Source: Haloplasmataceae bacterium (GTDB lineage: Bacteria > Bacillota_I > Bacilli_A > Haloplasmatales > Haloplasmataceae). Taken from it: 24,000 bases of DNA. Both the position numbers and the translations under genes were made by a program. Below are positions 4,954 through 19,975 of the stretch, piece by piece. The notes below the pieces were generated by a model that saw nothing but the letters and a program-made list of their open reading frames with translations, had not been told where the DNA came from and did not search any database. The stretch's first letter is position 1. Every line of letters begins with the position of its first letter. The stretch lies in the NCBI GenBank assembly GCA_036562595.1, contig DATCJW010000083.1, positions 1 through 24,000 of the forward strand, read 5' to 3'.

Positions 4954-5224
4954 GACAATTCCTAAAACTGGATAGTGGAAAGGCGTTGAAGAGGACAGGT
5001 AGTTTAAGAAGGCTATGTCAGAGAGATAATCCTAGTGGTGAGAGATTATTCATAGGCTTCTTAAATGAGATCACCTCGGAGCCGAACTCCTGAACGGATG
5101 CCCTAGTAGGGGGTTACGTCTATTTGCGTTAAAATTTCGAGTGATAGGAAATGCTCGAGCCATTTCCTATAATTTGGGTGGTACCGCGGTCTATTCGTCC
5201 CTAAGCTTGGCTTAGGGTTTTTTA
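4954..5224 (+). promoter_or_regulatory. T-box riboswitch leader, Ile (AUC) specifier
   Basis: AGAGA box near 5020-5026. Stem I arms are TTTAAGAAGGCT and AGGCTTCTTAAA. The specifier loop reads GAG-AUC-A with AUC at 5070-5072. The conserved T-box AATTTGGGTGGTACCGCG is at 5171-5188, and its UGGU bulge matches an A73 discriminator. The terminator is CCCTAAG (5199-5205), loop CTTGG, CTTAGGG (5211-5217), then T7. Confidence 0.9.
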
Positions 5225-5273: not shown

Positions 5274-8200
5274 ATGGCGAAGTTTAAACCTTTACGAGAT
5301 GGATCGGTTGCTGAAAACGAAAAACGGCTGGCAGAGTTTTGGGAAGAACAAGACATTTTAAACAAGTCCATTGAAAATCGTAAAGACAATGAGCCTTTCG
5401 TCTTCTATGAAGGGCCACCAACCGCAAACGGCCAACCTGGGATCCACCACGTACTCGCTCGGACATTAAAAGATACAATAACCAAATTTAAAGTCATGCA
5501 AGGTTACAAAGTGAGAAGAAAAGCCGGTTGGGATACCCATGGGCTACCTGTTGAAATCGAGGTGGAGAAAAAGCTCGGATTTAAAAATAAACAGGACATC
5601 GAATCATATGGCATAGAAAAGTTTAATGCGGAATGCCGAGAGTCTGTGTTTACTTATGAAAAGCAATGGCGAGAGATGACGAAGCGGATGGGGTATTTCA
5701 TCGACCTTGACCATCCCTATATCACCCTCGACAACGATTACATTGAAACGTTATGGTGGATTTTAGACCAGTTTAATAAAAAAGGTTACATTTACGAGGG
5801 GCATAAAATCCTGCCCTATTGCCCGCGTTGTGGGACGGGGCTTTCTTCACATGAAGTGGCCCTAGGGTATAAAGAAGTCAAGTCCAATACGGTAATCGTC
5901 GGCTTTAAACGGAAGGATCGCGATGAATACTTCCTTGTCTGGACCACGACTCCTTGGACGCTTGCATCCAACGTCGCATTAGCGGTTCACCCGGATGTTA
6001 CGTACGTTCGCGTGAGAAGTCGCGGGCATGTCTTCATACTTGCAAAGGATCTTCTGAAACAAGTCCTGGGTGATGATTACGAGGTTCTCGATGAATTTAT
6101 CGGAAAAGACCTCGAATACGTTGAATATGAACAGCTCATGCCCTTTATAAAGGTGGACAAGAAGGCATTTTTTGTCACCTGCGCCGATTTCGTTACGACA
6201 GAAGACGGAACCGGGATTGTCCATATCGCGCCTGCATTCGGTGACGATGACTACCAAGTCGGTCGAAAATATGATCTCCCGGTCCTTCAACCGGTGGATG
6301 AACAAGGAAACTACACGGATACGCCATGGAAAGGCCGTTTCGTCATGGACGAAGCATTAAACCTTGAGATTATTAAATGGTTGGCCGAGGAAGAGAAATT
6401 ATTTAAAAAGGATAAAGTAGAACACAACTATCCTCACTGTTGGCGTTGTCAAACCCCGCTCATTTACTATGCCCATCCCAGTTGGTATATCGAAGTTACA
6501 AAATTGAAGGATCAGCTTATTAAGAATAATCAAACAGTTCGTTGGTTTCCGGATTATGTCGGTGAAAAGCGGTTTGGCAATTGGCTTGAAAATGTAAAGG
6601 ATTGGGCAATTTCCCGTTCCCGTTACTGGGGGACACCGCTTAATATTTGGCGATGTGACACCTGTCATCGCTTTGAGACGATCGGATCGCGCAAAGAACT
6701 CGTCGAACGGGCAATCGAAGACATTGACGAATCGATTGAACTGCATCGGCCATATGTGGACAGTGTTCATCTCCGTTGTGAGTGCGGAGGTGTGATGCAC
6801 CGTGTTCCTGATGTCGTTGACGTCTGGTTTGATAGCGGTGCGATGCCGTTTGCCCAATACCATTATCCATTCGAAAACCTTGAGCTGTTTGAGGAACAAT
6901 TCCCTGCTGATTTCATTTGCGAGGGAATTGACCAGACCCGGGGCTGGTTTTATTCGCTCTTGGTCATCAGTACGTTCGTGAAAGGGGTATCCCCATTTAA
7001 GTCCGTTTTAGTCAACGACCTCATTTTAGATAAAGACGGACAAAAAATGTCTAAATCCCGTGGAAATACGGTGGACCCCTTTGATCTCTTCGAGAAGTAT
7101 GGTGCTGATGCGGTCCGATGGTATTTGATGTATGTATCTCCCGTCTGGAATCCGACACGCTTCAATGAAGAGGAACTGAAGGAAGTCGCTAGCAAGTTCT
7201 TCGTCACGCTACGCAATGTCTATACCTTCTTTTCGCTTTATGCCAATACGGATGACGTTGACCCCCGTGAGTTCTTTGTCCCCTATGCGGAGCGCCCCGA
7301 AATTGACCGCTGGATTCTTTCGAAATATCATCACCTGATAAAAGATGTCACCGAAGAACTAGAGGTCTGTGACTTAAATCGAGCGGTTCGTAAAATCCAA
7401 CACTTCGTTATTGAGGAGCTTTCCAATTGGTACATTCGTCGGAACCGCCGCCGATTCTGGAAAGGCGAACTGGACGATGATAAGAAGGCGGTTTACAATA
7501 CGACTTATGAGGTGCTTGAAGGATTATCCCGCCTCATTGCCCCCTTCGTCCCGTTTATTTCCGAAGAAATTTACCAAAATTTAACGGGAGAGTTATCCGT
7601 TCATTTAGCGGATTATCCCGTATACGATCCTTCGCTCATCGATCTGAAAGTGGAAGAGCGGATGGACCTCGTGAAGGGCCTTGTTGGCCTTGGTCGTGCG
7701 GCACGGGCGAATGAACAAATTAAAATTCGCCAACCCATTCAAAAGGTCATCATAGATGGTCGTTACGAAGCGCTCATCGGCGACTTGGTTGAGCTGATCG
7801 AAGAAGAGCTAAACGTGAAAGAAGTGGTTTTCCAACACGATTTAAGCACCTTTATGGACTTTTCCTTAAAGCCCAATTTCCGAGTTGCAGGAAAAGTATT
7901 AGGTCCCAAAATGAAGGCCTTTGGACAGGCGTTACAAAAACTAAACGCCTTGGAAGTGATGGAAAAGCTTCAAGCCGGCCATTCCTTAACCCTTAATCTC
8001 GATGGAGAAGAAACAGAGATTCCGGAGGACTTCATCCAAATCACCATCACGGCAAAAGAAGGGTTTAAAGTGGAGATGGAAAACAATTTGTTCGTCATCC
8101 TCGATACCCATCTTACGCCAGAACTCATAAAAGAAGGCTTGGCACGCGAATTTGTCTCGAAAGTCCAACAGTTACGGAAAACGAACAATTTTGAAGTGAC

Positions 8201-8390
8201 GGACCATATCCACATCATTTATCATTCTGACGATGAGGTAAAACAAGCCGTTCAAGATTTTGAGGCGTACATTAAAGAAGAAACATTAGCCGATTCGATT
8301 CGCTTCGTTGATTCATTAGAAGGGCTTGAGGAGCAAAATCTCAATGGCCACCTGACAGGCATTCGAGTCGAACGGGTTCCAACGGAATAA
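5274..8390 (+). CDS. ileS: Isoleucine--tRNA ligase, long type-2 (eukaryote-like) form
   Basis: 1038-aa ORF with HIGH-type motif PGIHHVL, KMSKS motif GQKMSKSRGN and CP1 zinc knuckles CPRCGT and CWRCQTP. The C-terminal 250 aa contain no Cys, so the type-1 zinc-binding tail is absent. An Ile T-box lies directly upstream. Confidence 0.95.
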   Translation: MAKFKPLRDGSVAENEKRLAEFWEEQDILNKSIENRKDNEPFVFYEGPPTANGQPGIHHVLARTLKDTITKFKVMQGYKVRRKAGWDTHGLPVEIEVEKKLGFKNKQDIESYGIEKFNAECRESVFTYEKQWREMTKRMGYFIDLDHPYITLDNDYIETLWWILDQFNKKGYIYEGHKILPYCPRCGTGLSSHEVALGYKEVKSNTVIVGFKRKDRDEYFLVWTTTPWTLASNVALAVHPDVTYVRVRSRGHVFILAKDLLKQVLGDDYEVLDEFIGKDLEYVEYEQLMPFIKVDKKAFFVTCADFVTTEDGTGIVHIAPAFGDDDYQVGRKYDLPVLQPVDEQGNYTDTPWKGRFVMDEALNLEIIKWLAEEEKLFKKDKVEHNYPHCWRCQTPLIYYAHPSWYIEVTKLKDQLIKNNQTVRWFPDYVGEKRFGNWLENVKDWAISRSRYWGTPLNIWRCDTCHRFETIGSRKELVERAIEDIDESIELHRPYVDSVHLRCECGGVMHRVPDVVDVWFDSGAMPFAQYHYPFENLELFEEQFPADFICEGIDQTRGWFYSLLVISTFVKGVSPFKSVLVNDLILDKDGQKMSKSRGNTVDPFDLFEKYGADAVRWYLMYVSPVWNPTRFNEEELKEVASKFFVTLRNVYTFFSLYANTDDVDPREFFVPYAERPEIDRWILSKYHHLIKDVTEELEVCDLNRAVRKIQHFVIEELSNWYIRRNRRRFWKGELDDDKKAVYNTTYEVLEGLSRLIAPFVPFISEEIYQNLTGELSVHLADYPVYDPSLIDLKVEERMDLVKGLVGLGRAARANEQIKIRQPIQKVIIDGRYEALIGDLVELIEEELNVKEVVFQHDLSTFMDFSLKPNFRVAGKVLGPKMKAFGQALQKLNALEVMEKLQAGHSLTLNLDGEETEIPEDFIQITITAKEGFKVEMENNLFVILDTHLTPELIKEGLAREFVSKVQQLRKTNNFEVTDHIHIIYHSDDEVKQAVQDFEAYIKEETLADSIRFVDSLEGLEEQNLNGHLTGIRVERVPTE

Positions 8391-8823: not shown

Positions 8824-9011
8824 TTTTGATGGGATTTGTCATCATTCCGTAATGGAAATAAGCGTAACAGTCGTTAATCGATTCAGAAAGTTTTAAAGCA
8901 TTGGCCTGTTCATTTTCTGTAAAATGTTGTATAATAAAGTCGTATGGATTAAGATCAACCGCTGATACTATGGTTAGTATCAGTAAATAAAAAATAAAAG
9001 GAGGAATCGTG

Positions 9012-9446
9012 ATGAAAGAATTAATACAATTGCTAAACAAAGAAGTGGCGAACTTCGGTGTATTGTATACCAAGCTCCATAACTTCCATTGGTTTGTCAA
9101 AGGGACGAACTTCTTCCGCTTACACGATAAGTTTGAGGAGCTGTATAATGCGGTGACCAATTATTTTGACGATGTGGCAGAACGCATCCTTATGCTCGGT
9201 GATCGTCCTGTTGCGACTCTTAAAGAGTTTTTAGAGCTAGCGTCAATTGAAGAAGCCAAAGGTAATGAGACAGACGTCGATATGGTGAAAGCAACAATCG
9301 CTGATTTCAAGAAGGTTAATGATGAACTAAGGGAAGGTATTGAACTAGCGGAAAAACTCGGCGATGATGTCACCGCAGACCTCTTCACGGGCATTCGTTC
9401 CGAACTACAAAAGCATATCTGGATGCTTGAAACGTTCATTGCTTAA
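9012..9446 (+). CDS. dps: Dps family DNA-protection/ferritin-like protein
   Basis: LNKEVANFGVLYTKLHNFHWFVKGTNFFRLHDKFEELY...ERILMLG is the Dps ferroxidase-site region. AGGAGG at 8999-9004 sits 7 nt from the ATG at 9012. Confidence 0.9.
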   Translation: MKELIQLLNKEVANFGVLYTKLHNFHWFVKGTNFFRLHDKFEELYNAVTNYFDDVAERILMLGDRPVATLKEFLELASIEEAKGNETDVDMVKATIADFKKVNDELREGIELAEKLGDDVTADLFTGIRSELQKHIWMLETFIA

Positions 9447-9470
9447 TCCTTTATTTTATGAAAGGGATAA

Positions 9471-9505
9471 AAAGAGCACTGGCTAGTACCAGTGCCCTTT
9501 TTGTT
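9471..9505. terminator. Bidirectional terminator between convergent dps and tpx
   Basis: AAAGAGCACTGG (9471-9482), loop CTAGTA, CCAGTGCCCTTT (9489-9500). There is an A-run on the left and a T-run on the right. Confidence 0.8.
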
Positions 9506-9533
9506 ATGTGTCGGGTTTGATAAAATCCTATCT

Positions 9534-10031
9534 TCACGTGAGTGAGTTAACGAATTCGAGCAATGCGTCATAGTTCGGATGATTCGTCACTTCATCGACG
9601 TATTCGGCGTAAAGTACTTTATTCTGTTGGTCGATGACAAACACGGCACGCGTTTGGAGCCGATATTCCGACATTAAGGTACCAAAAGCATTCGCGAAGT
9701 CTAAGTCTTTATAGTCGCTAAGCGTAATGATCTGTTCAAGACCTGAGTTTCCACACCACCGAAGTTGTGCAAAAGGGAGATCATTACTGATGGTCAGCAC
9801 GACGAGATCTTTCCGTCTGGCCAGTTCTTGGTTTATTTTCCGCGTTTGAAAGTCGCAGACCCCAGTATCGAGAGAGGGAACAACGTTAATCACACGATAC
9901 TTGTAGGATCTATAGTCATCGAATTGAACGGGTTTTAAATCGGTATTTATGACGGTAAAGTTACGAACGACATCACCGACTCGCACTGGTTTTCCGACGA
10001 GGTGGACGGGGCGACCAGCAAAGCTTGGCAT
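9534..10031 (-). CDS. tpx: Thiol peroxidase (atypical 2-Cys peroxiredoxin)
   Basis: 165-aa ORF with the VVPSLDTGVCDFQTR peroxidatic-Cys motif and the resolving-Cys context LRWCG. AAGGAG RBS present. Confidence 0.9.
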   Translation of the reverse strand: MPSFAGRPVHLVGKPVRVGDVVRNFTVINTDLKPVQFDDYRSYKYRVINVVPSLDTGVCDFQTRKINQELARRKDLVVLTISNDLPFAQLRWCGNSGLEQIITLSDYKDLDFANAFGTLMSEYRLQTRAVFVIDQQNKVLYAEYVDEVTNHPNYDALLEFVNSLT

Positions 10032-10069
10032 GGTATTTCACTCCTTTTTGTGAATTGAAAGTTAACCTT

Positions 10070-10097
10070 ATTATAGTAATTTAATTAACGATGTCAA
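10070..10097 (-). promoter_or_regulatory. tpx promoter
   Basis: On the minus strand: TTGACA (10097-10092), a 16-nt spacer, then TATAAT (10075-10070). Confidence 0.6.
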
Positions 10098-10106
10098 AGA
10101 TAATGC

Positions 10107-10766
10107 TTAAAGGTAAAACACAAAATAATAAAACAAACTGGTCATCAAAGGCAAAAGGAGGTTATCGTGCCCAGCTGGAGAAAAGATTTCGATAAGCGTC
10201 GCGATGATACTGATGGATAGGGCGGATATCATGGCAAATGGTTGCTTAAAAAGAGTAAGAATAAGGAAGGTAACCAAAAATGATATGATAAACATCGCGA
10301 TTGAACCTTCGAGGGTCTTATTTCGGAAAATTTTACGATGCCCCCATTTGGTGCCGACGATGGCGGCGAAACCATCGCCATAACCAAGGATGAAAATCCC
10401 GATGGCTCCGATGAAGGGTTCATGGATGATCCCAAAACTAAACAGGACAAGAAAGGCCATCGCCAACGGATAGAGTACGAGACCATGGTTTTGGCTGGGT
10501 TTGCGTTCCATCGCTTCTAATAGTTTCAAATCACGAGCAATAATATTGGCGATGATGAAGGTGACAGGCGGAATCAAAGCGATGAACGTGCGATCGAAGT
10601 ATGCCATGGCGATGAGCCACCAATGGCTGATGGAGACATGGATAAATTTGCGATTGTACTCCCGTTTCATTCCCATCCTACTGAAGAGCTTAGAGAGTAG
10701 GAACAACGTGCCAACGAAGACATAGGAGAGGGCCAGCCCTTTCCATTCGTTCATGGTAGGGAGCAT
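10107..10766 (-). CDS. Polyprenol/phytol/dolichol-kinase-like membrane protein (CTP-transferase-1 superfamily, COG0170-like)
   Basis: 219-aa polytopic protein with NRKFIH and GYGDGFAAIVGTKWGHRKI...NKTLEGS motifs, characteristic of this kinase/cytidylyltransferase family. Confidence 0.65.
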   Translation of the reverse strand: MLPTMNEWKGLALSYVFVGTLFLLSKLFSRMGMKREYNRKFIHVSISHWWLIAMAYFDRTFIALIPPVTFIIANIIARDLKLLEAMERKPSQNHGLVLYPLAMAFLVLFSFGIIHEPFIGAIGIFILGYGDGFAAIVGTKWGHRKIFRNKTLEGSIAMFIISFLVTFLILTLFKQPFAMISALSISIIATLIEIFSPAGHDNLLLPLMTSLFYYFVFYL

Positions 10767-10882
10767 GTTAACACCTGCCCTTTATTCATACGATCCATCT
10801 GACGCTCTCGTCGTTGTTCTTATTGTATCACCTGACGGTCGTTTTAGACAATAGCCCTCTTTTGAACATAGCTTTTTTATCA

Positions 10883-10911
10883 TTGCATCTTTTTGGCATT
10901 ACTGTTATGAT
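10883..10911 (+). promoter_or_regulatory. Dedicated promoter of the ATPase-HEPN cassette
   Basis: TTGCAT at 10883-10888, a 17-nt spacer, then TGtTATGAT (extended -10) with TATGAT at 10906-10911. It lies about 40 nt upstream of the ATG at 10952. Confidence 0.55.
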
Positions 10912-10951
10912 GGAAGGGGAAAGGCTAAAATAAACGGAAGGGGGTTTTGGG

Positions 10952-12052
10952 ATGCTGGTTCAAATCGGCATATCGAACTATAAATCCATCGATGAGCGAA
11001 TCGTTCTTTCCTTATTAGCCACGAAGGAAGAACGCCATCCGAGCATTGTCCGCTCAGTGGGAGACTTGTCCCTTCTTCCCGTCGCTTTAATCGTAGGACC
11101 AAATGGGGCGGGGAAGTCAAACTTATTCCATGCCCTCCAACACATGCAGGATATCATCTTAAACACCGTTTCGCTTCCCTATTACCCGCATCACCTAAAT
11201 CCCAATGAAGAGACGGCCATCGATCTTCAGCTCATGCTTCAGGGGAGGCGCTATGCCTATGGCATCGCTTATAATGGGGAAAGCATCCTTGAAGAGTATT
11301 TTGCCGTAATTGAAAACGAGGAACCGATGGCCATCTTTGAGCGAGAAGGCGACACGGTTACGCTTTCGCACCAATCGGTCAAACTTCCTACTCATGAAAG
11401 TGCGGTTCATTTTCTTTCAGAAGGAGCGTCTGACGACATTCGGCTGTTTTACCAATTCGTTAAAAATCATCTCATCGTAGCCCTTGTCGATGAGGAAATT
11501 GAACAAGAAGAAGTATCGCAACTATTAAAAGAAAGCCAGTTACTCAAACAGGTACGAACCCTCTTAAAACGACTCGATATTGGACTAGAGGATCTTGTAC
11601 TAAAGGGGGATACCGTTTATGTTAAGTATCACGCCTTTCAGTTACCACTTGAAAACGAGTCGACGGGAACGCGGCGCCTTATCTATCTTTTAACGGTTAT
11701 TTGCGACGCATTAAGGGCGGGAAAAGTCATTCTCATCGATGAACTCGAGCGGAATATACATACAAACTTAACGACGACAATCATTCGATTATTTAATTCG
11801 GATATAACGAACCCGCAGAACGCCCAATTGATCTGTTCGAGCCACAATACGCACCTATTAGATCTCCAATTGTTGCGGCAGGATCAAATTTGGTTTATGG
11901 AGAAGGACTTCGAGCATTTGCGGACCGATCTTTACTCCCTTTATAACATTGAAGGGGTAATGGATGATGAGAACATCGAGTACGGCTATGTGAAGGGGAA
12001 GTACGGCGCTACGTTTAAAATTAATTTTACAGAGGTCATGAAGGATGATTAG
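10952..12052 (+). CDS. AAA_21/ABC-type (SMC-like) ATPase, candidate sensor subunit of a two-gene defence-like module
   Basis: 366-aa ORF with AAGGGGG RBS. N-terminal IGISNYKSID strand. Walker A GPNGAGKS (aa 49-56, nt 11096-11119), signature-like ESTGTRRL (aa 236-243), Walker B VILIDELE (aa 259-266) and H-loop CSSHNTHLL (H298). Confidence 0.85.
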   Translation: MLVQIGISNYKSIDERIVLSLLATKEERHPSIVRSVGDLSLLPVALIVGPNGAGKSNLFHALQHMQDIILNTVSLPYYPHHLNPNEETAIDLQLMLQGRRYAYGIAYNGESILEEYFAVIENEEPMAIFEREGDTVTLSHQSVKLPTHESAVHFLSEGASDDIRLFYQFVKNHLIVALVDEEIEQEEVSQLLKESQLLKQVRTLLKRLDIGLEDLVLKGDTVYVKYHAFQLPLENESTGTRRLIYLLTVICDALRAGKVILIDELERNIHTNLTTTIIRLFNSDITNPQNAQLICSSHNTHLLDLQLLRQDQIWFMEKDFEHLRTDLYSLYNIEGVMDDENIEYGYVKGKYGATFKINFTEVMKDD

Positions 12053-12749
12053 ACGCGATTTTGCTCTCGAGAATCGGGAGGTCAAAACCCGTAAGAAACG
12101 GCCCGTATCGCTTGAAACCGATGCTCTTGGGCTGATCGAACGGTTTCGAACATCGATAAGAAATATCGATGATCGCTTCCGTCTTTATCACGTTTTAATC
12201 GGCCAACGTCTTTATGAGGAGGCAGAGGATCTCCTACGCTTTCAGATTGTTTATTTAATGAGCGCCTTGGACTTCTTTATGCATGAGCTGTATAGCTACG
12301 GAATTCTAAAGATTTTCCAACATCAAAAGCGTAAAACTGAGCGCTACAAATCGTTTCGGGTGCCGCTGGAACTGGTGGAACAAGCCTTATTCGATGGTGA
12401 GAATATTCAGCACCACTTAAAAAAAATGATTACCGAAATCAACCAAACATTTACCTTTATGCATCCCAGTCGTATTAAAGAATTGCTTCATACTATTGGT
12501 TACGCCGATGCTTTTTCAAAAGCGCAACGGGTGCTGCGTAAAAAAGGCATTTTACGAGACGGTGAGGCCTTAGCGCCTCTATTAGAGAAGATCTACATTC
12601 GCCGAAATAAAATTTCGCACCAAACGGATATTGAGCATGGCGGTACTAATCGCCTATCCATTTCGTTGGAAGAGGTCAGGCATTACCGTGACGTCATTTT
12701 CCATGCCGTAGAGACAATTTATGAGACCGTTTGTCACGACATATCTTAA
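12045..12749 (+). CDS. HEPN-domain protein (predicted RNase effector), translationally coupled to the upstream ATPase
   Basis: 234-aa, mostly helical ORF. Its ATG at 12045 overlaps the ATPase stop (12050-12052) by 8 nt. The motif IYIRRNKISHQ gives R187-N-x3-H192 (nt 12603-12620) about 40 aa from the C-terminus, where the HEPN Rx4-6H motif normally sits. The N-terminus is basic (RREVKTRKKRP). Confidence 0.7.
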   Translation: MIRRDFALENREVKTRKKRPVSLETDALGLIERFRTSIRNIDDRFRLYHVLIGQRLYEEAEDLLRFQIVYLMSALDFFMHELYSYGILKIFQHQKRKTERYKSFRVPLELVEQALFDGENIQHHLKKMITEINQTFTFMHPSRIKELLHTIGYADAFSKAQRVLRKKGILRDGEALAPLLEKIYIRRNKISHQTDIEHGGTNRLSISLEEVRHYRDVIFHAVETIYETVCHDIS

Positions 12750-12753
12750 ATGC

Positions 12754-12780
12754 GAAAGAGGCTGATGCCTCTTTTGCTTT
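12754..12780 (+). terminator. Intrinsic terminator of the ATPase-HEPN cassette
   Basis: GAAAGAGGC (12754-12762), loop TGAT, GCCTCTTTT (12767-12775), followed by a T-rich tail. Confidence 0.75.
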
Positions 12781-12923
12781 ATTTGGCAAATTAGAGATGG
12801 GGACTTTTTCAACACTTGTTCATTTTGTGTTTCATAACTCTAATTTTTCCGAGCTAAGTATAAGTCGGCACATCTTGATGAACAATACATTATAGAGTAA
12901 AACGAAAAAAGAAGGAGTGGACT

Positions 12924-13520
12924 ATGGCAAAAGTATTGTTCATTAAAGCCAATCCAAAGGAAGTAGAAGACTCCAATACGTTTCAACTGGCCACTGCATT
13001 TTTAAACGAGTATAAAAAAATCAATCCTGATGATACCATTGATTTCATCGATCTGTATGAGGAAGAACATCTCACCTTTATCGACCAAAAAATGCTCCGA
13101 CAGATGTTAAGCGGAGAAGACAATGTCATGGCCCAGTACGCTAAGCACTTCACGGAGTACGATAAGTATGTCTTTGCAGCCCCGCTTTGGAATTTAAGCT
13201 TTCCTGCCATTCTAAAGGCCTACTTCGACTATATCAGCTATGCAGGCATTACCTTTAAGTATACGGAGCAGGGTTCCATCGGATTATTAAAAGACCGGCC
13301 ACGTAAGGCCATCTACATTACGAGTCGGGGCGGAGATTATACAACGGGCCCCTTAAAGGATTTAGGGGAGTTGTACATTCATACCCTCCTTAAGTTCTTT
13401 GGAATTGAACAAGTCGAGACGTTAGCCCTTGACAATACGAACGTTTTGGTTGGGGAGGCGCTTCAAAAGGCCCGAGAAGAAGCATACGAACGGGCTCGAG
13501 AAGTTGCTCATCGCTTCTAA
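12924..13520 (+). CDS. azoR: FMN-dependent NADH-azoreductase
   Basis: 198-aa ORF. MAKVLFIKANPK...STFQLATAFLNEYKKINPDD...FAAPLWNLSFPAILKAYFDYI matches the AzoR/AcpD flavodoxin-like fold family. GAAGGAG RBS present. Confidence 0.85.
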   Translation: MAKVLFIKANPKEVEDSNTFQLATAFLNEYKKINPDDTIDFIDLYEEEHLTFIDQKMLRQMLSGEDNVMAQYAKHFTEYDKYVFAAPLWNLSFPAILKAYFDYISYAGITFKYTEQGSIGLLKDRPRKAIYITSRGGDYTTGPLKDLGELYIHTLLKFFGIEQVETLALDNTNVLVGEALQKAREEAYERAREVAHRF

Positions 13521-14013: not shown

Positions 14014-14484
14014 GTGAGGAAATTGAAACGAGTAAAAATGAGTCAACTGATCGTGGACCACGTCATGTTGGTCTACTTGCACGACCTTCTATCGTTGCGG
14101 GAGAAGGACGAACACTTTTATCAAAGCGACGTGTACCGCGTTTTAACAGAACCCGCACTAGTGACGGTGGTGTTAGGCCTACGTAAAAGCATGATGTTGT
14201 CCTTTGGGCTTTTGTCTTATATCTTCTTCTTAAAGTGGGCGTACCGGTCCATGGGCTGGACATGGCAATGGATAGGCATTGGCCTTTTCGTCCTACTTTA
14301 TTGGGTGGTCTTCACCTTCATTCGGCGTGAAGTCAAAGAGATGCAATACCAGTTTCAATTGAAACGCGCAGCGAAATATGCATTGGAACACTTTGACTAC
14401 AAGGAATTCGTTATCTTCCTCGATCAATATTTAAGTGTCAAATCATCAAAAGTATATTTTGAAGAAAAAGCCTATCACACATAA
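14014..14484 (+). CDS. Hypothetical membrane protein
   Basis: ORF with two or three hydrophobic segments (ALVTVVLGL, LSFGLLSYIFFL, IGIGLFVLLYWVVFTF). The start is ambiguous: GTG 14014, TTG 14023 or ATG 14038. I recognise no family. Confidence 0.5.
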   Translation: MRKLKRVKMSQLIVDHVMLVYLHDLLSLREKDEHFYQSDVYRVLTEPALVTVVLGLRKSMMLSFGLLSYIFFLKWAYRSMGWTWQWIGIGLFVLLYWVVFTFIRREVKEMQYQFQLKRAAKYALEHFDYKEFVIFLDQYLSVKSSKVYFEEKAYHT

Positions 14485-14518
14485 AAAATCACAAGAGAGG
14501 AATCTCTTGTGATTTTTT
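14483..14518. terminator. Bidirectional terminator between convergent genes
   Basis: Perfect 16-bp stem AAAAAATCACAAGAGA (14483-14498), loop GGAA, TCTCTTGTGATTTTTT (14503-14518). Confidence 0.85.
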
Positions 14519-14519
14519 A

Positions 14520-15248
14520 TTATGCAAACTGAAGCGACTCTGAAAAATTGGCGTGATCGTGTTCCAGCTTTTTGGTGAATCCGTTCATGTAATATAAGGC
14601 ATCGATTGAAAGGGATTGGGCAAACTCATTAAGTGGTTTTAAAAGCCGATTTCCTAGGCTCCCCTTGGTGTAGTAGGTGACTTGATCGATAAACAAAAGC
14701 TTTTGATTGCGAAAAGCGGCGATGATGCCGACGGGTTCGTCCCCTTCATTCACTTGCAAGTAACACGGCTTAAGCACATCATAGGTTTCTACGGGCCCCT
14801 TCTCATAAAGGGTATAGAAGAGATCCCGTTCCTCCGGGGTTGGCGTGTTACTGCACGTGTAAGGATGGGTAAAGGCAAGAGGTTGGATCGCGTCAATGCG
14901 GAGTCGATAGAAGCTATAGGGTCGGTGTTGTACGGTATATTCGTCGTAACGTTCAAAGCGGTTGTTTCGTAAAATGTGCTTAATGTATTGGATATGAGTC
15001 CCCATCAAGAGTTGTCTGATAGATGTTTTTTGGAGTTCTCGTATCACTTCATGCAATAATATCGAGCCAAAACTGAAACCCCGAATCTGCGGGTTTAGCC
15101 AAAAACGGCTGATGTAAGCATTGGTCCGCTGGACGTCGACCGAAATACCACCCAATACCTCTTCCTTTGGTCCTTTTATGAGGACGACCATCTCCTCTGC
15201 CATTGGAGATGTTATATTATTTTGAGTAATTGTGATGATCGGAATCAA
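14520..15248 (-). CDS. Hypothetical protein with GNAT-like acetyl-CoA motif(s)
   Basis: 242-aa ORF. LNPQIRGFSFGSILLHEVIRELQ resembles GNAT motif A (Q/R-x-x-G-x-G/A). A weaker second copy is YYTKGSLGNRLLKPLNEFA. The TTG start at 15248 is uncertain. Confidence 0.4.
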   Translation of the reverse strand: MIPIITITQNNITSPMAEEMVVLIKGPKEEVLGGISVDVQRTNAYISRFWLNPQIRGFSFGSILLHEVIRELQKTSIRQLLMGTHIQYIKHILRNNRFERYDEYTVQHRPYSFYRLRIDAIQPLAFTHPYTCSNTPTPEERDLFYTLYEKGPVETYDVLKPCYLQVNEGDEPVGIIAAFRNQKLLFIDQVTYYTKGSLGNRLLKPLNEFAQSLSIDALYYMNGFTKKLEHDHANFSESLQFA

Positions 15249-15425
15249 CCCCTCTATTTACGTTTGGTTACGTATAATTTACCAGAAAAATGTCGTTTTG
15301 TATAGCTTTTATTAGAAAAAGTTAAATTTTTCTAAAATGAAACAAAACAAGTCCTTCTTTATTTTCTTTATTCTCAGGTTGTGATATGATGGACTATAAT
15401 ATAGGGACAAATGGGTGAGAAAACG

Positions 15426-15806
15426 ATGAAAGATATTGACTTGCTGCCAAAAAAATGGCGCCAACTTTCGATTAGCCAAGACGAGATTGTGGTCCCCTAT
15501 GAGGCCTCCTATCCGATTCTAGACTTCTTCCGTATGAAAGGGTATGCGGCGCTTGGATGTGAGGTCCTACACGTATCCGAAACGGAACACATAGAAATTC
15601 GTACATTCATTAGCTATTTTCCTGATGCGATTGTATGGGAAGAATTTGTCAATGATGCCTATCATCAAGTTCGAAATTTTTTAGAACAGACCTATAAAGA
15701 ACTTCTCTATGGCGAGGAAGAACTAGACGACATCTACGTTCTGCTGACGTTTGTCAATCGACAGGAGTTTGAGACGTATTACTATGACTTTATAGCAGTG
15801 GACTGA
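15426..15806 (+). CDS. Hypothetical acidic cytoplasmic protein
   Basis: ORF with good coding appearance. I prefer the ATG at 15426 (GGGTGAG RBS, 6-nt spacer) over 15411. I recognise no family. Confidence 0.5.
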   Translation: MKDIDLLPKKWRQLSISQDEIVVPYEASYPILDFFRMKGYAALGCEVLHVSETEHIEIRTFISYFPDAIVWEEFVNDAYHQVRNFLEQTYKELLYGEEELDDIYVLLTFVNRQEFETYYYDFIAVD

Positions 15807-15869
15807 CCTGGCAGATACTTAAAGTTGTGATCGCATCGGTTCATGTAGAGGTTTCCGATAAGGGGAGTT

Positions 15870-16349
15870 ATGATGAAACAGCGCCTAGCTTTCCTGCTCG
15901 TCATCATATGGATGCTCTTTATCTTCGTATGGTCTCACCAAACGGGTCCGGAATCCAGTGAGACGAGCGGGAAAATCATACGTTTTCTTAGCGCCTTAGG
16001 AATAGGCATCACATCCCGTACCGAATTGATTCTTCATCATTTTATTCGGAAGGTAGCTCATTTTTTCGAATACTTTATCCTTTCCCTCTTGTTATTTAAC
16101 TACTTGCGGGAATTGATGGAGGGAAAAGGGCTGTACCTTTGGCCCATTTCGATCAGTTTCCTCTATGCTTGTTCCGATGAGATTCACCAAATATATGTGC
16201 CTGGACGCGTTGGATCATGGAAGGATGTAGTAATCGATACAGCTGGCGCAAGTGCCGCCATGCTTCTCGTTTTCGCCTATCGTAGCCTAAGGAATCACCG
16301 GAAGCCAAACCATAAAGTAATGGATTCGACAAAAAGCGAGTCGCTTTGA
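15870..16349 (+). CDS. VanZ-like family membrane protein
   Basis: 159-aa ORF. RKVAHFFEYFILSLLL and DEIHQIYVPGRVGSWKDVVIDTAGA are the VanZ-like signature regions. The start may be the ATG at 15873. Confidence 0.8.
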   Translation: MMKQRLAFLLVIIWMLFIFVWSHQTGPESSETSGKIIRFLSALGIGITSRTELILHHFIRKVAHFFEYFILSLLLFNYLRELMEGKGLYLWPISISFLYACSDEIHQIYVPGRVGSWKDVVIDTAGASAAMLLVFAYRSLRNHRKPNHKVMDSTKSESL

Positions 16350-16394
16350 CTTCAATTTCCGATATAATAAAAAAAAAGGAAGGCTGGTGAAACG

Positions 16395-17765
16395 GTGGCA
16401 TCTCCTGTCTTCGACTATACTTTTCACCTAAACTATTTACATGATCTGTTGACTAAAGCAGAAGCTTTGGATAAGCGAATCGAATCGGCTTTTTCGTTTC
16501 TGTGCCAACTTTTAAATGCCGATGAGGTGTATTTCAATACCTTTAACGCCAATTTATCCCATGCCAAGGAGACGTTTGTCTGTACCAAATTTGGGTTCGT
16601 TGGTTCCCCATACCAAAGCATTCCCTATAAATCGCATAAAAAAGTGATTCAGGTCTTATCCGAGCAGCAATATTACTACGTAAAGGAAATTGATCAGGAA
16701 ACGGATAAGGACATCCACCATCGCTTTAAGGAACGAGGCATTCGGGGCTTTTGGTTTTACCCCATAGAGGTAAAGGAGACGTTAATCGGCTGCCTTGGCG
16801 TTCGCAATTACTCGAAACCACTATACATCGATCATGCCCACCTCATGCTCATTCGGTTTGTCAGTCGCCTGTTCGCCCAGATCGTTGAAAAAGAATACAG
16901 TTTTTTTAAGTATATGATTAATGACAATCTATATAAATACTTCTTTCAAGCCTTTCCCTTTCCTTTTGTCATCCTTAATGAAGACTATAAAATTATTGAC
17001 GTCAATTCGGCTTTTGAGCAGTTATTCGATATACTGACTTACGAAATCATCTTCCGTGATTTTTTCCAAGTTTTGAACAACTACGATAATGAACGGATTA
17101 AAGCCCAACTCGAGGCCCTGGAACCCTATCGTCCGAGTACTTACGAGATCTTTAAGGTGATCAACCAAGAAAACAAGATCTTAAAACTCCTGATGGTTCG
17201 ACTCGATGACGAACATACCCACTACTATGGCGTCTGTATTGAGGATATTACAGAGATAAAAGTCAATGAGCGCACACTTCACAAGTTGGCCTACCATGAC
17301 CCTTTGTCCGGCTTGCATAATCGGAACTATTTTGAAAAAGTATGCCTTGAACTTGAAACCGAGCCGAATCAGCCGCTGGGGATTATCAGCATCAAGTTGG
17401 ACAATTTAAAGGAGGTCAACTTACAATTTGGCTATGAGGAAGGCGATCGCTTAATCTATTCGGTTGCAGAAGCGATAACGGCAACGATGGGTGCGGAGCG
17501 GCTGATTGCCCGCATCAGTGGTGGAGAATTCATTGTCTTCATCGTCAACAAGGACAAGCATTACATCGAGAAGAAACAGGATGATTTCCAACAACGCCTC
17601 GATGCAATCAAGGCCCATTTAAAAGCTCCCGTGAAACTATCCATGATGATGGCCTATGCCGAAAACAGCTGGGAAATCGGACGCTTATTGGATGAGGTTG
17701 GATATAATAAGAAACGTCTACGGCGAAAACAACGCCAACTCGTGGCCACGCATCAAGATGCATAG
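16395..17765 (+). CDS. GAF-like / PAS / GGDEF-domain signalling protein with a non-canonical active-site motif
   Basis: 456-aa ORF with a GTG start after AAAGGAAGG. PAS-like FVILNEDYKIIDVNSAFEQLF. The GGDEF domain starts at AYHDPLSGLHNRNYF. The active-site position reads RISGGEF (aa 373-379; SGGEF at nt 17517-17531) instead of R-x-GG(D/E)EF. Confidence 0.8.
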   Translation: MASPVFDYTFHLNYLHDLLTKAEALDKRIESAFSFLCQLLNADEVYFNTFNANLSHAKETFVCTKFGFVGSPYQSIPYKSHKKVIQVLSEQQYYYVKEIDQETDKDIHHRFKERGIRGFWFYPIEVKETLIGCLGVRNYSKPLYIDHAHLMLIRFVSRLFAQIVEKEYSFFKYMINDNLYKYFFQAFPFPFVILNEDYKIIDVNSAFEQLFDILTYEIIFRDFFQVLNNYDNERIKAQLEALEPYRPSTYEIFKVINQENKILKLLMVRLDDEHTHYYGVCIEDITEIKVNERTLHKLAYHDPLSGLHNRNYFEKVCLELETEPNQPLGIISIKLDNLKEVNLQFGYEEGDRLIYSVAEAITATMGAERLIARISGGEFIVFIVNKDKHYIEKKQDDFQQRLDAIKAHLKAPVKLSMMMAYAENSWEIGRLLDEVGYNKKRLRRKQRQLVATHQDA

Positions 17766-17792
17766 AAAAACCACCCACATGGGTGGTTTTTT
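17766..17792. terminator. Bidirectional terminator between the GGDEF gene and the pseudouridine synthase gene
   Basis: AAAAACCACCC (17766-17776), loop ACAT, GGGTGGTTTTT (17781-17791). Confidence 0.85.
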
Positions 17793-18717
17793 AAGTGGTT
17801 ACCTCATCCCATAGTTTTTTTAGATCCGCTGGAAGATCGGAGGATACGGTAAGCAGTTGGTCTGTGAAGGGATAGGGGAAGATTAGTTCTGAAGCATGTA
17901 AAGCGGTGCGAGGGAAAGGATTCGGTTGGGCGTGATAGAGTTTATCGCCAATGATTGGGGTCCCGATAGCTGACAGATGAACTCGGATTTGATGGGTACG
18001 GCCCGTTACCAACTCACATTGGACAAGGGCCAATCGATGTTTTGATATGGCGAGGGTCTCGATATGGGTGATCGCCCGTTGTCCAGTTGAGGAGACCCGA
18101 AACCTGTTGGAACGGTGGCGATGCCTTCCAATGGGGAGATCGATTGTTTGTTTTTTAGGGTTAGGGATGCCATCGGTGATTGCCAAGTATCTTCGGATGA
18201 TGCGATTGGCTTTTATTAAAGCATCGTAGCGGGGTTGTAGAAGGCGAGCTTTGATAAAGAGGATAAGGCCGCTCGTCTCATAGTCCAAGCGATGAAGATA
18301 ACGGACGAGACAGCGCTGGTTGGTTTCAAAATAGTAATGACTGACGGCGTTTACTAAAGTCCCGGTCCCTTCTTTGGAAGCGGGATGGACCAAGTAAAAA
18401 GGCGGCTTATTCACAACGAGAAAAAAATCATCTTCATAGGCGATGTCAATCGGGATAGGTTCCGGGATAAAATCTGGTTGATCAAGATTAAAGAAAGGCA
18501 AGCGGAGCCGATCATTGAGCTTTAATCGCAACGAGAAGTTCTGCTTAATGGGCTGATCATTCAGATAAACACGATGGCTCATGCGTAAAAAATGGCGATC
18601 CTTTTTCGAAAACTGGAGTGATTGGAAAAATGTATCGATGGTTTGATTGACATAAGGGTAATCGATGAGGATTTCTAAATCATTATCCATTCGACGGATT
18701 TGCATTTTTGAGTTCAC
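17791..18717 (-). CDS. RluA-family 23S rRNA/tRNA pseudouridine synthase (RluD-like, with an S4-like N-terminus)
   Basis: 308-aa ORF with catalytic motif HRLDYETSGLILF and downstream TGRTHQIRVHL. The start is either GTG 18717 or ATG 18705. Confidence 0.85.
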   Translation of the reverse strand: MNSKMQIRRMDNDLEILIDYPYVNQTIDTFFQSLQFSKKDRHFLRMSHRVYLNDQPIKQNFSLRLKLNDRLRLPFFNLDQPDFIPEPIPIDIAYEDDFFLVVNKPPFYLVHPASKEGTGTLVNAVSHYYFETNQRCLVRYLHRLDYETSGLILFIKARLLQPRYDALIKANRIIRRYLAITDGIPNPKKQTIDLPIGRHRHRSNRFRVSSTGQRAITHIETLAISKHRLALVQCELVTGRTHQIRVHLSAIGTPIIGDKLYHAQPNPFPRTALHASELIFPYPFTDQLLTVSSDLPADLKKLWDEVTT

Positions 18718-18862
18718 CGACCTTACTTTATATCCCCATTATAGCGCATCATATGAAAACCGCCAATGTTTATAACGGATGATGCAGTTTAAAATACGCC
18801 TATTTTGGGTAAGCTATTAAAAGATTATCTTCCTATATAAAACAAGCAAAGGACGTGAACCG

Positions 18863-19699
18863 ATGGATCGTCTAGTCGAGCTAGGCATTATTCATTTTGC
18901 GAAAAACCTTATGATCGCCCTTTTAATACTTCTCATCGGATTGTACTTGATCCGGTCCTTGCAGCGCTTGATTGAAAACCGTATGGAGCGGAAACGGGTG
19001 GATCCTTCACTTCAAAGTTTTCTGTTGCCACTCGTTCGCATGACCCTTTTGATTGTGTTAGGAATTACCGTCATACGACAGCTGGGAGTGGAGGCTACCT
19101 CTCTCATTGCCCTCATTACTTCCGCAGGTCTAGCGGTGGGGCTTGCCCTACAAGGCAGCCTATCCAATGTAGCCGGCGGTGTCTTGATTCTCCTATTGAA
19201 ACCCTTTCGGGTAGGAGACTATATTGAAGTCGATGACTATCGCGGGACGGTAAAGAACATTTCGATTTACTATACGGAACTAAAAACCGATGACGGTCAA
19301 CAAGTCGTAATTCCAAACGGGGATATCGTTAGTACTAGCGTGGTAAATTACTCCACCTATCCAGAACAACGGTTTGATTTGACCATTCCGGTTTCCTATC
19401 AAGATGATCCGATTAGGGTTCGCCAGCTTCTGCAAAGCCTGATGCACGAGGTTCCGACCTTTTTGGAGGATCCTGCACCAAGCGTCTTTCTAAAGGGTTT
19501 TACCGAACACGCCATCGAATTTACCCTACGAGGTTGGGTCAGGCGTGAACACTATCGAGAAACGTTAGACCAACTTTTACCGCTTATTAAGAAGACATTT
19601 AATCAGGAAAACATTATGTTGCCGTATCCACAGCTTGTCGTTCACCTTCATCCAACCTCTCCAATTCCTTATAAAAAGAATGGAAATTCGGGATCATGA
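18863..19699 (+). CDS. mscS: Small-conductance mechanosensitive channel (MscS family)
   Basis: 278-aa ORF with three N-terminal TM segments and the pore-helix region SAGLAVGLALQGSLSNVAGGVLILLLKPFRVGDYIE. Confidence 0.85.
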   Translation: MDRLVELGIIHFAKNLMIALLILLIGLYLIRSLQRLIENRMERKRVDPSLQSFLLPLVRMTLLIVLGITVIRQLGVEATSLIALITSAGLAVGLALQGSLSNVAGGVLILLLKPFRVGDYIEVDDYRGTVKNISIYYTELKTDDGQQVVIPNGDIVSTSVVNYSTYPEQRFDLTIPVSYQDDPIRVRQLLQSLMHEVPTFLEDPAPSVFLKGFTEHAIEFTLRGWVRREHYRETLDQLLPLIKKTFNQENIMLPYPQLVVHLHPTSPIPYKKNGNSGS

Positions 19700-19711
19700 A
19701 GGAGTGAGACG

Positions 19712-19924: not shown

Positions 19925-19940
19925 ACATCAAGATAAAAGG

Positions 19941-19974: not shown

Positions 19975-19975
19975 T

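Follow-up and report, generated by a model that had tools for sequence, protein, structure and literature searches.

Introduction

Pairs made of an ABC ATPase and a nuclease (PARIS, Septu, Gabija/OLD, AbiL) rank with the most common designs of bacterial immunity, and several of them are tRNases. AbiL, in which an ABC ATPase is joined by a Toprim nuclease, has been placed in one group with PARIS (PMC13064643; PMC11464382). In PARIS, the oligomeric ATPase sequesters the nuclease and releases it upon a trigger, leading to its dimerisation and to tRNA cleavage, such that the ATPase doubles as an antitoxin and as a phage sensor. Cleavage of tRNA is now also reported for PtuAB and AriB, formerly regarded as DNases, including the PtuAB of retron Eco7. 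A related pair of an ATPase and a Toprim protein, HEC-01, failed to protect E. coli when assayed.

HEPN proteins have also been found next to P-loop ATPases. Dyads of a ParA/Soj-like ATPase and a HEPN protein were predicted to be toxin-antitoxin (TA) systems (Anantharaman et al. 2013), and in the NetFlax study a HEPN toxin node (M61) is linked to D29, the AAA-ATPase hub that the study treats as an "antitoxin", with an example in antitoxin-first order from Anoxybacillus flavithermus WK1 (WP_041638689.1) (PMC10440598). NetFlax gave D29:M61 one sentence, with no name, experiment or evolutionary analysis, and its authors read it as pointing to a tendency of nucleases to go together with the D29 ATPase (PMC10440598). 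The same study showed that AAA ATPases can neutralise nuclease toxins, with toxicity abolished in three AAA:toxin pairs, and found that AarT:AAA, the single pair included in its phage screen, gave no defence against the BASEL coliphages (PMC10440598). HEPN is missing from the effector list of a 2024 tree of AAA15/21 defence ATPases (PMC11464382).

Here, we analysed an ATPase and HEPN gene pair that a first-pass annotation of the DNA sequence had proposed as a candidate undescribed defence module. It lies in a 24,000-nucleotide stretch of DNA, referred to as a whole as the window, whose host is a Haloplasmataceae MAG and not a Bacillus.

Results

Both genes, like all the features located below, are on the forward (+) strand. 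The ATPase gene (10952..12052, from the ORF list) encodes a protein of 366 aa that is identical in sequence to NCBI HEY8436271.1, annotated as "ATP-binding protein", and the HEPN gene (12045..12749) encodes a protein of 234 aa, NCBI HEY8436272.1, annotated as "hypothetical protein". The HEPN start lies within the end of the ATPase gene, giving an 8-nt overlap (ATGATTAG, 12045..12052) that suggests translational coupling of the two genes; the lengths and the overlap initially claimed were confirmed exactly from the ORF list and the sequence. Both genes have a good Shine-Dalgarno sequence, which we read as GGAAGGGGG (10936..10944), 7 nt 5' of the ATPase ATG, and as GAGG/GAAGG upstream of the HEPN gene start at 12045. 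The pair was also said to have its own promoter and its own terminator. For the terminator, this was borne out by a scan that detected an intrinsic terminator at 12752..12777 (11-bp stem with 6 GC pairs, 4-nt loop, T-rich tail), which begins 3 nt past the HEPN stop and is the strongest and a correctly placed one among the terminator-like sites of the region, even if the number of such sites found by the scan (4 versus 3.8 expected) is no excess over chance. For the promoter, a putative sigma-A site can be read by eye at 10883..10911 (TTGCAT, a 17-nt spacer and TGtTATGAT as an extended -10) within the 185-nt divergent intergenic region, but it was not called by the consensus scan because its -35 hexamer matches at just 3/6 positions; a promoter at this place is plausible. 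Altogether, the two genes form a real two-gene operon.

Judging from its sequence, the product of the first gene is an ABC (Rad50/SMC-like, AAA_21) ATPase of the AbiLi family with intact catalytic motifs. It matches the Pfam families AAA_21 (6.3e-26) and AAA_15 (5.9e-16), PHROG 5836 and, with a score of 253 bits (6.7e-76), the PADLOC AbiLi model PDLC02335, against which the transporter ATPase of the window, taken as a control, scores just 24.8 bits. Its PADLOC matches to AriA (4e-29) and especially to PtuA (only 1e-9) are weaker, and PrrC and RloC are absent from its top PADLOC and NCBIfam matches. The Walker A or P-loop motif GPNGAGKS (11096..11119, residues 49-56), the signature-like ESTGTRRL (11657..11680, residues 236-243, E236-L243), the Walker B motif with its catalytic Glu VILIDELE (11723..11746, residues 258-265) and the H-loop SSH (11837..11845, residues 296-298) were all found where the first-pass annotation had seen them, as was the R-N-x-x-x-H motif of the second protein. 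Among 37 ATPase homologues, the invariant residues include G49, N51, G54 and K55 of Walker A, E236, S237 and G239 of the signature, D263 and E264 of Walker B and H298 of the H-loop. The AF2 model of the protein (pLDDT 89.7, pTM 0.89) was matched by Foldseek to Rad50 (3qkt, 4.1e-13), Septu PtuA (8eea, 4.1e-12), retron PtuA (9n69, 1e-11) and OLD (6p74, 4.7e-11), in line with the AAA_21/ABC-type assignment that had been proposed.

The second gene is predicted to encode a RiboL-PSP-family HEPN protein with an intact Rx4H dyad, which would make it an RNase effector or toxin. The match of the window protein to PF18735 (HEPN_RiboL-PSP; 5.9e-7) barely exceeds the gathering cut-off (30.0 versus 28.4 bits); the same family is matched by 124/130 of its relatives, with a best E-value of 2e-19. 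R187 and H192, which belong to the motif RRNKISH (12600..12620, residues 186-192), are the sole invariant columns among 130 diverse family representatives, while R186, N188 and D195 are shared by 90% or more of them, and the early placement of this 234-aa protein in the HEPN clan is upheld at the level of profile and motif. The recurrent secondary matches of the relatives are to other HEPN families (HEPN_MAE_28990, Apea, AbiU2, Cthe2314 and Swt1), and the remaining ones are scattered over one or two members each, with Abi_2 in one member. The protein also matches PHROG 13503, with no PADLOC model matched. Pfam searches and the matches of the relatives revealed no DNase motif, and neither Pfam nor PADLOC gave a match to DUF4435 or Toprim. 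The AF2 model is all-helical (pLDDT 79); Foldseek searches with it against PDB and BFVD returned nothing significant, the best HEPN chains having an E-value of ~2. The first ~30 residues form a basic N-terminal extension (MIRRDFALENREVKTRKKRP..., 12045..12134) that has low confidence in the model and that is missing from the short-form relatives linked to ParA-like ATPases; it may serve in docking to the ATPase or in RNA binding. Our literature search on PF18735 or RiboL-PSP returned nothing relevant beyond the 2013 HEPN survey and a generic domain table.

The same gene order, ATPase then HEPN, was found in 41 independent loci from the Haloplasmatales-like lineage, Clostridia and viral contigs, with the two genes separate (unfused) in every one of them. 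Since this arrangement recurs at protein identities of 25-54%, the pairing is not a chance one. Start codons as annotated in the database put the two genes either in a 4-17-nt overlap or ~14 nt apart, while automatic picks, which take the first start codon from 60 nt 5' of the ATPase stop, place the junctions between -59 and +19 nt. The ATPase gene is directly upstream in 14/16 loci found with a HEPN seed, and HEPN genes are still found downstream of ATPase homologues with identities as low as 28%. Strict search patterns located the close HEPN family at only 15 loci among 185,579 species genomes. The co-occurrence of homologous pairs that the first-pass annotation had suggested checking is therefore seen, with tight junctions, and the ATPase and HEPN genes stay closely linked as a conserved unit.

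When scans were seeded with the ATPase instead, the partners were 122 RloB, 17 HEPN and 4 other proteins, and the ATPases encoded upstream of RloB genes were 30-38% identical to that of the window. All 28 HEPN-linked ATPases fell into one clade (bootstrap 99/100), which is placed inside or beside the AbiLi family, and the RloB partners clustered apart from the HEPN partners, with no cross-matches. Because AbiLi-family ATPases mostly pair with RloB/Toprim proteins and the HEPN-linked ones make up one clade, our reading of the tree is that a HEPN protein replaced the usual RloB/Toprim nuclease, in other words that the effector was swapped within AbiL-like systems. The cassette had previously been interpreted as a split version of the PrrC/RloC logic; this did not hold, considering that the ATPase is of the AbiLi type, with the 28 HEPN-linked ones in one clade, and an evolutionary origin by splitting of PrrC/RloC was rejected, as the ATPase nests with AbiLi/RloB-linked ATPases. 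ParA-type partners were seen only with the short-form HEPN relatives (~202 aa; L014, L015 and L026), on a Pf-like phage and on Burkholderia plasmids.

In the window, the other ORFs tested are all housekeeping genes, PADLOC gives just generic ABC cross-matches besides the pair, and no NTase domain was found. A defence island was thus rejected for the window, as was a recent mobile insertion: there is no GC shift, no tRNA gene and no bounding direct or inverted repeat, and the locus is syntenic in relatives. Within the Haloplasmatales-like lineage, the neighbourhood of the pair is conserved (Dps, Tpx, AzoR and VanZ), and the identities of the ATPase (36-46%) and of the HEPN protein (43-54%) are only somewhat below those of the flanking genes (49-73%). 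This conserved neighbourhood, together with a divergence only slightly beyond that of the flanks, looks like a long vertical residence in this lineage, unlike the typical turnover of defence islands. Transposase, recombinase and Imm5-like genes lie near the pair at one locus, L190, which points to a variable region there. Viral loci make up 14 of the HEPN-linked loci. On IMG/VR contigs, the pair sits between an integrase and an endolysin gene, in Anaerotignum at a prophage end and in Intestinibacter in a context of Mor, amidase and SSB genes. The suspected link to defence islands hence fails in the window, where only housekeeping genes surround the pair; elsewhere, however, the pair is found as prophage cargo.

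Discussion

Compared with described systems, the pair is closest to AbiL (AbiLi and AbiLii of Lactococcus lactis), with which it shares the ATPase family and the order of an ATPase gene followed by an adjacent or overlapping effector gene. AbiL or AAA_21 + RloB (PF13707) modules are also often found on viral contigs, as the HEPN pair is. The difference lies in the effector, which is the RloB/Toprim-OLD-like AbiLii (PF13707) in AbiL and a HEPN protein (PF18735) in the window, and PADLOC cannot call AbiL here because AbiLii is absent. PARIS (AriA and AriB) is likewise a two-gene system of an ABC ATPase and a nuclease and is our proposed mechanistic template, although AriB is a DUF4435/Toprim tRNase, which the window partner is not, and the similarity to AriA is generic to the AAA_21 domain. 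Septu (PtuA and PtuB) and the retron PtuAB have a similar ATPase fold and the same ATPase-nuclease logic, with an HNH effector instead. PrrC and RloC likewise contain both an ABC-type ATPase and a HEPN-class RNase, which the ATPase restrains until a phage or stress signal, but they do so in a single polypeptide, whereas the window pair consists of two ORFs, each with a start codon and a ribosome-binding site of its own; its HEPN family (RiboL-PSP) and its AbiLi-like ATPase are both unlike those of PrrC/RloC, and no type I restriction-modification system is linked to it. The ParA-HEPN dyads share the HEPN family PF18735, in its short form, and likewise have an upstream, overlapping P-loop ATPase gene, but their ATPase (ParA/AAA_31(/CbiA)) is of a P-loop class unrelated to the ABC/AAA_21 ATPase of the window, and the extra basic segment of ~30 residues distinguishes the ABC-linked HEPN proteins from the ParA-linked short forms. 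In HEPN-MNT systems (HepT/MntA), the antitoxin is a minimal nucleotidyltransferase instead of an ABC ATPase encoded upstream.

NetFlax D29:M61 likewise has a HEPN gene after that of an AAA/ABC ATPase, in a Bacillota genome; we liken M61 to the window protein by its node description only, and no Anoxybacillus protein was among the named matches of our protein searches. The pairing was thus briefly noted in 2023, its logic is familiar and it is not wholly undescribed, contrary to one part of the first-pass proposal (PMC10440598). The other part, that the pair is not one of the named two-gene systems, stands as far as PADLOC v2, in which no named system covers the HEPN partner, and the 2024 effector list, from which HEPN is absent, are concerned. 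The literature searched contained no experiment on the pair or on any homologue.

We propose that the locus is a coupled operon of an AbiLi-type ATPase and a HEPN protein that took the place of RloB/Toprim, and that it would work as an ATPase-gated toxic RNase in a PARIS/AbiL-like manner, which we regard as a reasonably likely account. It is probably a phage-defence or toxin-type module, and we infer a function in defence. Weighing against this account are the housekeeping surroundings of the pair in the window, its apparent vertical residence in the lineage, the lack of a significant Foldseek match for the HEPN model, the narrow margin of its Pfam match and the failure of HEC-01 to protect E. 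coli. By analogy with PARIS, with the AAA-neutralised toxin pairs of NetFlax and with the fused PrrC/RloC, the ATPase oligomer would bind the HEPN protein and hold it inactive, acting both as antitoxin and as sensor. A phage-derived cue or a stress would then alter the conformation or the ATP cycle of the ATPase, and the released HEPN protein would dimerise into a composite Rx4H site and cleave cellular RNA (tRNA or mRNA), resulting in translation arrest and aborted infection. The physical interaction, the toxicity, the RNase activity and its substrate, the trigger and the phage protection are all expected from this analogy. That the whole clade is an uncharacterised anti-phage system, in which an AbiL/PARIS-type ATPase was re-wired once from Toprim to HEPN and has co-evolved with it since, comes close to an even bet in our opinion.

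A plain TA or addiction module would have the same two parts, with the HEPN protein as the toxin and the ATPase as a mere antitoxin without phage sensing, and would stabilise prophages, plasmids or genomic regions or mediate competition between elements. This accords with the antitoxin-first order with overlapping genes, which is typical of TA operons, with the presence of short-form HEPN relatives on plasmids and filamentous phage, with the prediction of Anantharaman et al. that ParA-ATPase:HEPN dyads are TA systems, and with NetFlax, where D29 is classed as an antitoxin hub, three AAA:toxin pairs were neutralised and AarT:AAA gave no phage defence. We nevertheless find it rather unlikely: an ABC ATPase of 366 aa whose catalytic motifs are fully conserved would be an expensive antitoxin, the ATPase of PARIS, the best-studied relative, is antitoxin and phage sensor at once, and the chromosomal syntenic copy of the Haloplasmatales-like lineage has nothing obvious to stabilise. 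The TA account and that of an ATPase-gated RNase overlap heavily.

This syntenic site, beside Dps, Tpx and an azoreductase-like gene, could also point to an RNase domesticated in the lineage for housekeeping or stress, in which an ATP-regulated HEPN nuclease would help to turn over RNA or to control its quality, perhaps during oxidative stress, and the normal composition and the absence of mobile-element signatures would fit with it. The rarity of the close HEPN family (15 loci), the module being prophage cargo in Clostridia and present on IMG/VR contigs, its faster divergence than that of its neighbours, the AbiL-type sister ATPases and the transposase, recombinase and Imm5-like genes near the L190 pair make such a role improbable. 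We consider it very improbable that the pair acts on DNA in a Septu- or Gabija-like way, with an ATPase that senses DNA ends or foreign DNA and a HEPN-like partner that is a non-RNase adaptor or a DNase; the closest solved ATPase folds (Rad50, Septu PtuA and OLD) do work on DNA or in DNA-sensing complexes, but the invariant Rx4H dyad is a hallmark of HEPN RNases, PtuAB and AriB are themselves now reported as tRNA cleavers and the partner has no DNase motif.

If the pair is an ATPase-gated HEPN RNase, a clade of AbiLi ATPases driving HEPN proteins would bring the second major fold of RNase toxins into the ATPase-nuclease design and would connect split systems with PrrC and RloC, the classical anticodon nucleases in which both parts are fused, as their two-gene counterpart. 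The clade would then be a natural experiment in which a P-loop ATPase holding a dimerisation-activated RNase proves to be a portable immune design, the same HEPN family being, on this reading, gated independently by ParA-type ATPases as well, and in Haloplasmatales an anti-phage system would have turned into a long-term chromosomal resident. Current annotation misses the pair, as PADLOC v2 sees the ATPase alone and NCBI has no name for the HEPN gene. The RloB-linked and HEPN-linked sister ATPases would offer a clean comparison to separate the parts of the ATPase that recognise the effector from those that sense phages.

Basic N-terminal tails of ~25-35 residues are found on both the ABC-linked HEPN proteins and the RloB partners (K+R fractions of 0.28 and 0.35, respectively). 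A docking peptide shared by the two types of partners was rejected: with an HMM trained on the HEPN tails, real RloB tails did not score above shuffled ones (Mann-Whitney p = 0.996), so that the idea of homologous tails was dropped and their likeness is compositional only.

An AbiLi-type ATPase gene overlaps the gene of a HEPN protein

Two ORFs of the forward strand make up the cassette, one encoding a 366-aa ATPase (10952-12052) and the other a 234-aa HEPN protein (12045-12749), and they overlap by 8 nt (junction ATGATTAG), as the first-pass annotation had described. Good Shine-Dalgarno sequences precede both genes, and every motif listed earlier was located: in the ATPase, the Walker A motif GPNGAGKS (residues 49-56), the signature motif ESTGTRRL (236-243), the Walker B/Glu motif VILIDELE (258-265) and the H-loop SSH (296-298), and in the HEPN protein the R-N-x-x-x-H motif, as RRNKISH (186-192). 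A terminator scan also called the proposed terminator (12752-12777, forward strand), with an 11-bp stem, 3 nt past the HEPN stop codon. The extended -10 promoter that had been proposed is legible in the sequence (10883-10911, forward strand; TTGCAT, 17 nt, TGtTATGAT), but it fell under the scanner threshold because its -35 hexamer agrees at only 3/6 positions, so its assignment as the cassette promoter is plausible. Both exact proteins are found in a public Haloplasmataceae bacterium MAG, labelled 'ATP-binding protein' (HEY8436271.1) and 'hypothetical protein' (HEY8436272.1), indicating that the host is not a Bacillus.

Profile searches agreed with the proposed AAA_21/ABC nature of the ATPase (Pfam AAA_21, 6.3e-26; AAA_15, 5.9e-16), and its best PADLOC match was by far the AbiLi model (6.7e-76, 253 bits), followed by much weaker matches to the generic AriA, HEC-01A and PtuA models. 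To gauge specificity, the AbiLi model was compared with a genuine ABC-transporter ATPase of the window, which reached only 24.8 bits. An ABC uptake operon of the window has a transporter ATPase (2704-3492) that cross-matched the PADLOC models mad3 (3e-26), mad8, AriA and AbiLi, showing that weak PADLOC matches of ATPases are non-specific. In an alignment of 37 ATPase homologues, no variation was seen at the residues of Walker A, the signature motif, Walker B/Glu or the H-loop. The AlphaFold model of the ATPase is confident (pLDDT 89.7), and its nearest solved structures are Rad50 heads (4e-13) and the Septu protein PtuA (4e-12), with a retron-associated PtuA and an OLD nuclease as further neighbours.

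The second protein matched PF18735 (HEPN_RiboL-PSP) with 30.0 bits, just over the gathering score of 28.4, and had no match in PADLOC or NCBIfam. Judged by sequence profiles, its HEPN assignment is much firmer for the whole family than for this single protein: when 1.84 billion cluster representatives were searched with a profile, 852 relatives were returned, and 124 of 130 diverse ones matched PF18735 (best E-value 2e-19). The recurrent secondary matches of these 130 relatives were to other HEPN-clan families (MAE_28990, Apea, AbiU2, Cthe2314 and Swt1), one relative matched Abi_2, and the remaining matches were scattered over one or two members each. R187 and H192, which form the Rx4H dyad, are the only invariant columns across the 130 representatives, while R186, N188, D195, H80 and D76 are at least 90% conserved; profile and motif thus support the earlier HEPN call. 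In a 2013 survey of HEPN proteins, 'Ribo L-PSP-HEPN' is listed as a distant relative of AbiD and AbiF (PMC3710099), and we found no functional study of PF18735 or RiboL-PSP in the literature searched. The ATPase and the HEPN protein fall in PHROG 5836 and PHROG 13503, respectively, two families whose function is unassigned in PHROG.

The ATPase and the HEPN protein are obligately co-encoded

A search seeded with the HEPN protein gave 15 loci from GTDB species genomes and one metagenome contig, and the ATPase gene was immediately upstream of the HEPN gene in 14 of these 16 loci. On the annotated starts of the records, the two genes overlapped by 4-17 nt or were separated by a gap of about 14 nt. 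When starts were instead picked automatically, as the first start codon counting from 60 nt ahead of the ATPase stop, the values ran from -59 to +19 nt. The association was also seen in the reverse direction, since ATPase homologues with only 28-35% identity (Intestinibacter, Anaerotignum) had a PF18735 gene directly downstream. Homologous pairs thus do co-occur across genomes, a point that the earlier annotation had proposed to check. Overall, the analysis shows that an ABC ATPase with intact motifs is obligately co-encoded with a HEPN protein that has an invariant dyad, and that the two are tightly linked, their genes overlapping or nearly adjacent, and co-evolving.

HEPN-linked ATPases form one clade, related to ATPases linked to RloB

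Other relatives of the ATPase, with 30-33% identity, are followed by genes encoding RloB (PF13707). This is the layout of lactococcal AbiL, in which the ABC ATPase AbiLi precedes the Toprim/OLD-like AbiLii and which is now grouped with PARIS (PMC13064643; PMC12409363; PMC11464382). When metagenome and IMG/VR contigs were scanned with the ATPase alignment and the downstream ORFs of the resulting 160 loci were clustered, the partners fell into two clean families, RloB and HEPN (64 RloB, 3 HEPN and 2 others at metagenome loci; 58, 14 and 2 at viral loci), and the RloB identity was confirmed in 6/6 randomly sampled partners. In an unrooted neighbour-joining tree of 111 non-identical ATPases, a single clade contained all 28 HEPN-linked sequences and no other (bootstrap 99/100), with a mean identity of 0.40 inside the clade versus 0.30 to RloB-linked ATPases. 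The HEPN partnership thus appears to have arisen once, or to have split once, and to have been kept since then with co-evolution; its relation to AbiL is read as a swap of the effector. The earlier proposal that the cassette is a split version of PrrC or RloC was not borne out as an account of its origin, considering that the ATPase is AbiLi-like and that the HEPN-linked clade lies inside or beside the AbiLi/RloB-linked relatives.

Two minor features of these partners were also observed. At two loci (L066 and L099), AbiLi-like ATPases are followed by a third, small type of partner, of 142-154 aa, that has no Pfam match, ends in ...HIVYLDKDHQFW and ...FYVVFLDSEHKFY, and possibly represents an mRNA-interferase-like toxin (compare 'AarT' of NetFlax, a 2023 network study of toxin-antitoxin pairs). 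In addition, both main partner types start with 25-35 residues that form a strongly basic tail outside the catalytic domain (12045-12134 in the window HEPN gene; RloB partners of loci L028-L189), and a homology test between HEPN and RloB tails was negative, with no detectable sequence homology.

As to novelty, the view that an ATPase plus a HEPN protein is not a named two-gene system holds for PADLOC v2, from which the HEPN partner is absent, and a 2024 tree of AAA15/21 defence ATPases (PMC11464382) annotates no HEPN effector. NetFlax, however, already lists a pairing of this kind, with the HEPN toxin node M61 on the AAA-ATPase antitoxin hub D29 (for example WP_012575561.1 and WP_041638689.1 in Anoxybacillus flavithermus WK1; PMC10440598), and M61 may belong to the same HEPN family. 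The cassette is best rated as a predicted, uncharacterised variant among the AbiL/PARIS-type ATPase-nuclease modules, whose pairing was partly anticipated by computation.

The module is mobile cargo in other lineages and an apparent long-term resident in the window's lineage

Outside the window's lineage, the module belongs to the cargo of mobile elements. On IMG/VR contigs it has an integrase gene on one side and an endolysin gene on the other; in Anaerotignum it is found at a prophage end, past the tail and lysis genes and adjoining host prmC/prfA; and in Intestinibacter its neighbours are Mor, amidase and SSB genes. The 24-kb window consists of housekeeping genes throughout (ABC transporters, T-box/ileS, Dps, Tpx, an azoreductase-like gene, GNAT, VanZ, a PAS-GGDEF protein, a pseudouridine synthase, MscS, Fur/Zur and ZnuABC), and a search for a GC shift, a tRNA gene or bounding repeats found none in it. 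Eight related loci carry the pair in the same neighbourhood. Flanking proteins share 49-73% identity, whereas the ATPase reaches 36-46% and the HEPN protein 43-54%, which indicates that the pair has long been inherited vertically while evolving somewhat faster, and argues against a recent acquisition.

Several features of these surroundings were noted in passing. The flanks of the cassette (9009-13520) are of an oxidative-stress type, with Dps, thiol peroxidase and an FMN-dependent azoreductase-like gene, and they recur in relatives. The isoleucine-tRNA ligase gene (5274-8390) is immediately preceded by a T-box leader (RF00230, 121.9 bits; 4977-5205, forward strand), which is ordinary regulation. 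In Haloplasmatales-like relatives, the pair often directly follows a conserved gene pair, made up of an ORF of about 200 aa and the gene of a Band_7 protein (about 475 aa) that may be flotillin-like (floT-like), at 4746-6785 in L001, 3348-6030 in L190, 6595-8622 in L191 and 6730-8792 in L192; the window lacks this gene pair at the corresponding position. L190 also has an Imm5-like immunity gene just upstream of the pair and, about 4-10 kb downstream (14343-20690), an rve transposase, DUF6431 and three tandem tyrosine recombinases, which suggests a variable, mobile region.

The cassette probably encodes an ATPase-gated toxic RNase

In PARIS, an AriA hexamer sequesters AriB until a trigger frees it to dimerise and cleave tRNA-Lys (PMC13064643; PMC12409363; PMC11464382), and the AAA ATPases of the NetFlax D29 hub neutralise nuclease toxins (PMC10440598). 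By analogy with these two precedents and with PrrC/RloC (PMC3710099), the cassette probably encodes an ATPase-gated toxic RNase acting in abortive infection. The ATPase, doubling as a sensor, would keep the HEPN protein inactive, and the freed HEPN protein would dimerise into an active RNase and arrest translation; the basic N-terminal extension peculiar to ABC-linked HEPNs may be a docking or RNA-binding element.

A toxin-antitoxin or addiction role without phage sensing is in our view unlikely. We hold it improbable that the pair was domesticated in the window's lineage as a housekeeping or stress RNase, and a DNA-directed role seems very improbable.

Some short-form HEPNs are paired with ParA-type ATPases

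The two exceptions among the 16 HEPN-seeded loci (Acinetobacter and Angelobacter MAGs), together with one further short relative, had a ParA/AAA_31-type ATPase upstream instead. With a length of about 202 aa, these ParA-linked HEPNs have no counterpart of the basic 30-residue N-terminus of the ABC-linked form; at L014, L015 and L026/L027, the short-form PF18735 gene overlaps that of the ParA/AAA_31-type ATPase. The 2013 HEPN survey (PMC3710099) predicted that ParA-ATPase:HEPN dyads act as toxin-antitoxin systems. Using tblastn against annotated records, the short form was also found beside an integrase in the Pf-like filamentous Pseudomonas phage WX-TY (L193, 1959-3591) and behind an 'AAA family ATPase' on conjugative Burkholderia glumae plasmids (L194, 2449-4088); both pairs resemble the ParA-linked ones by size and arrangement, their upstream gene being known as ATPase-sized or by its record label. 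Short-form HEPNs with an upstream ATPase look like a separate, apparently uncharacterised family of ATPase-HEPN modules.
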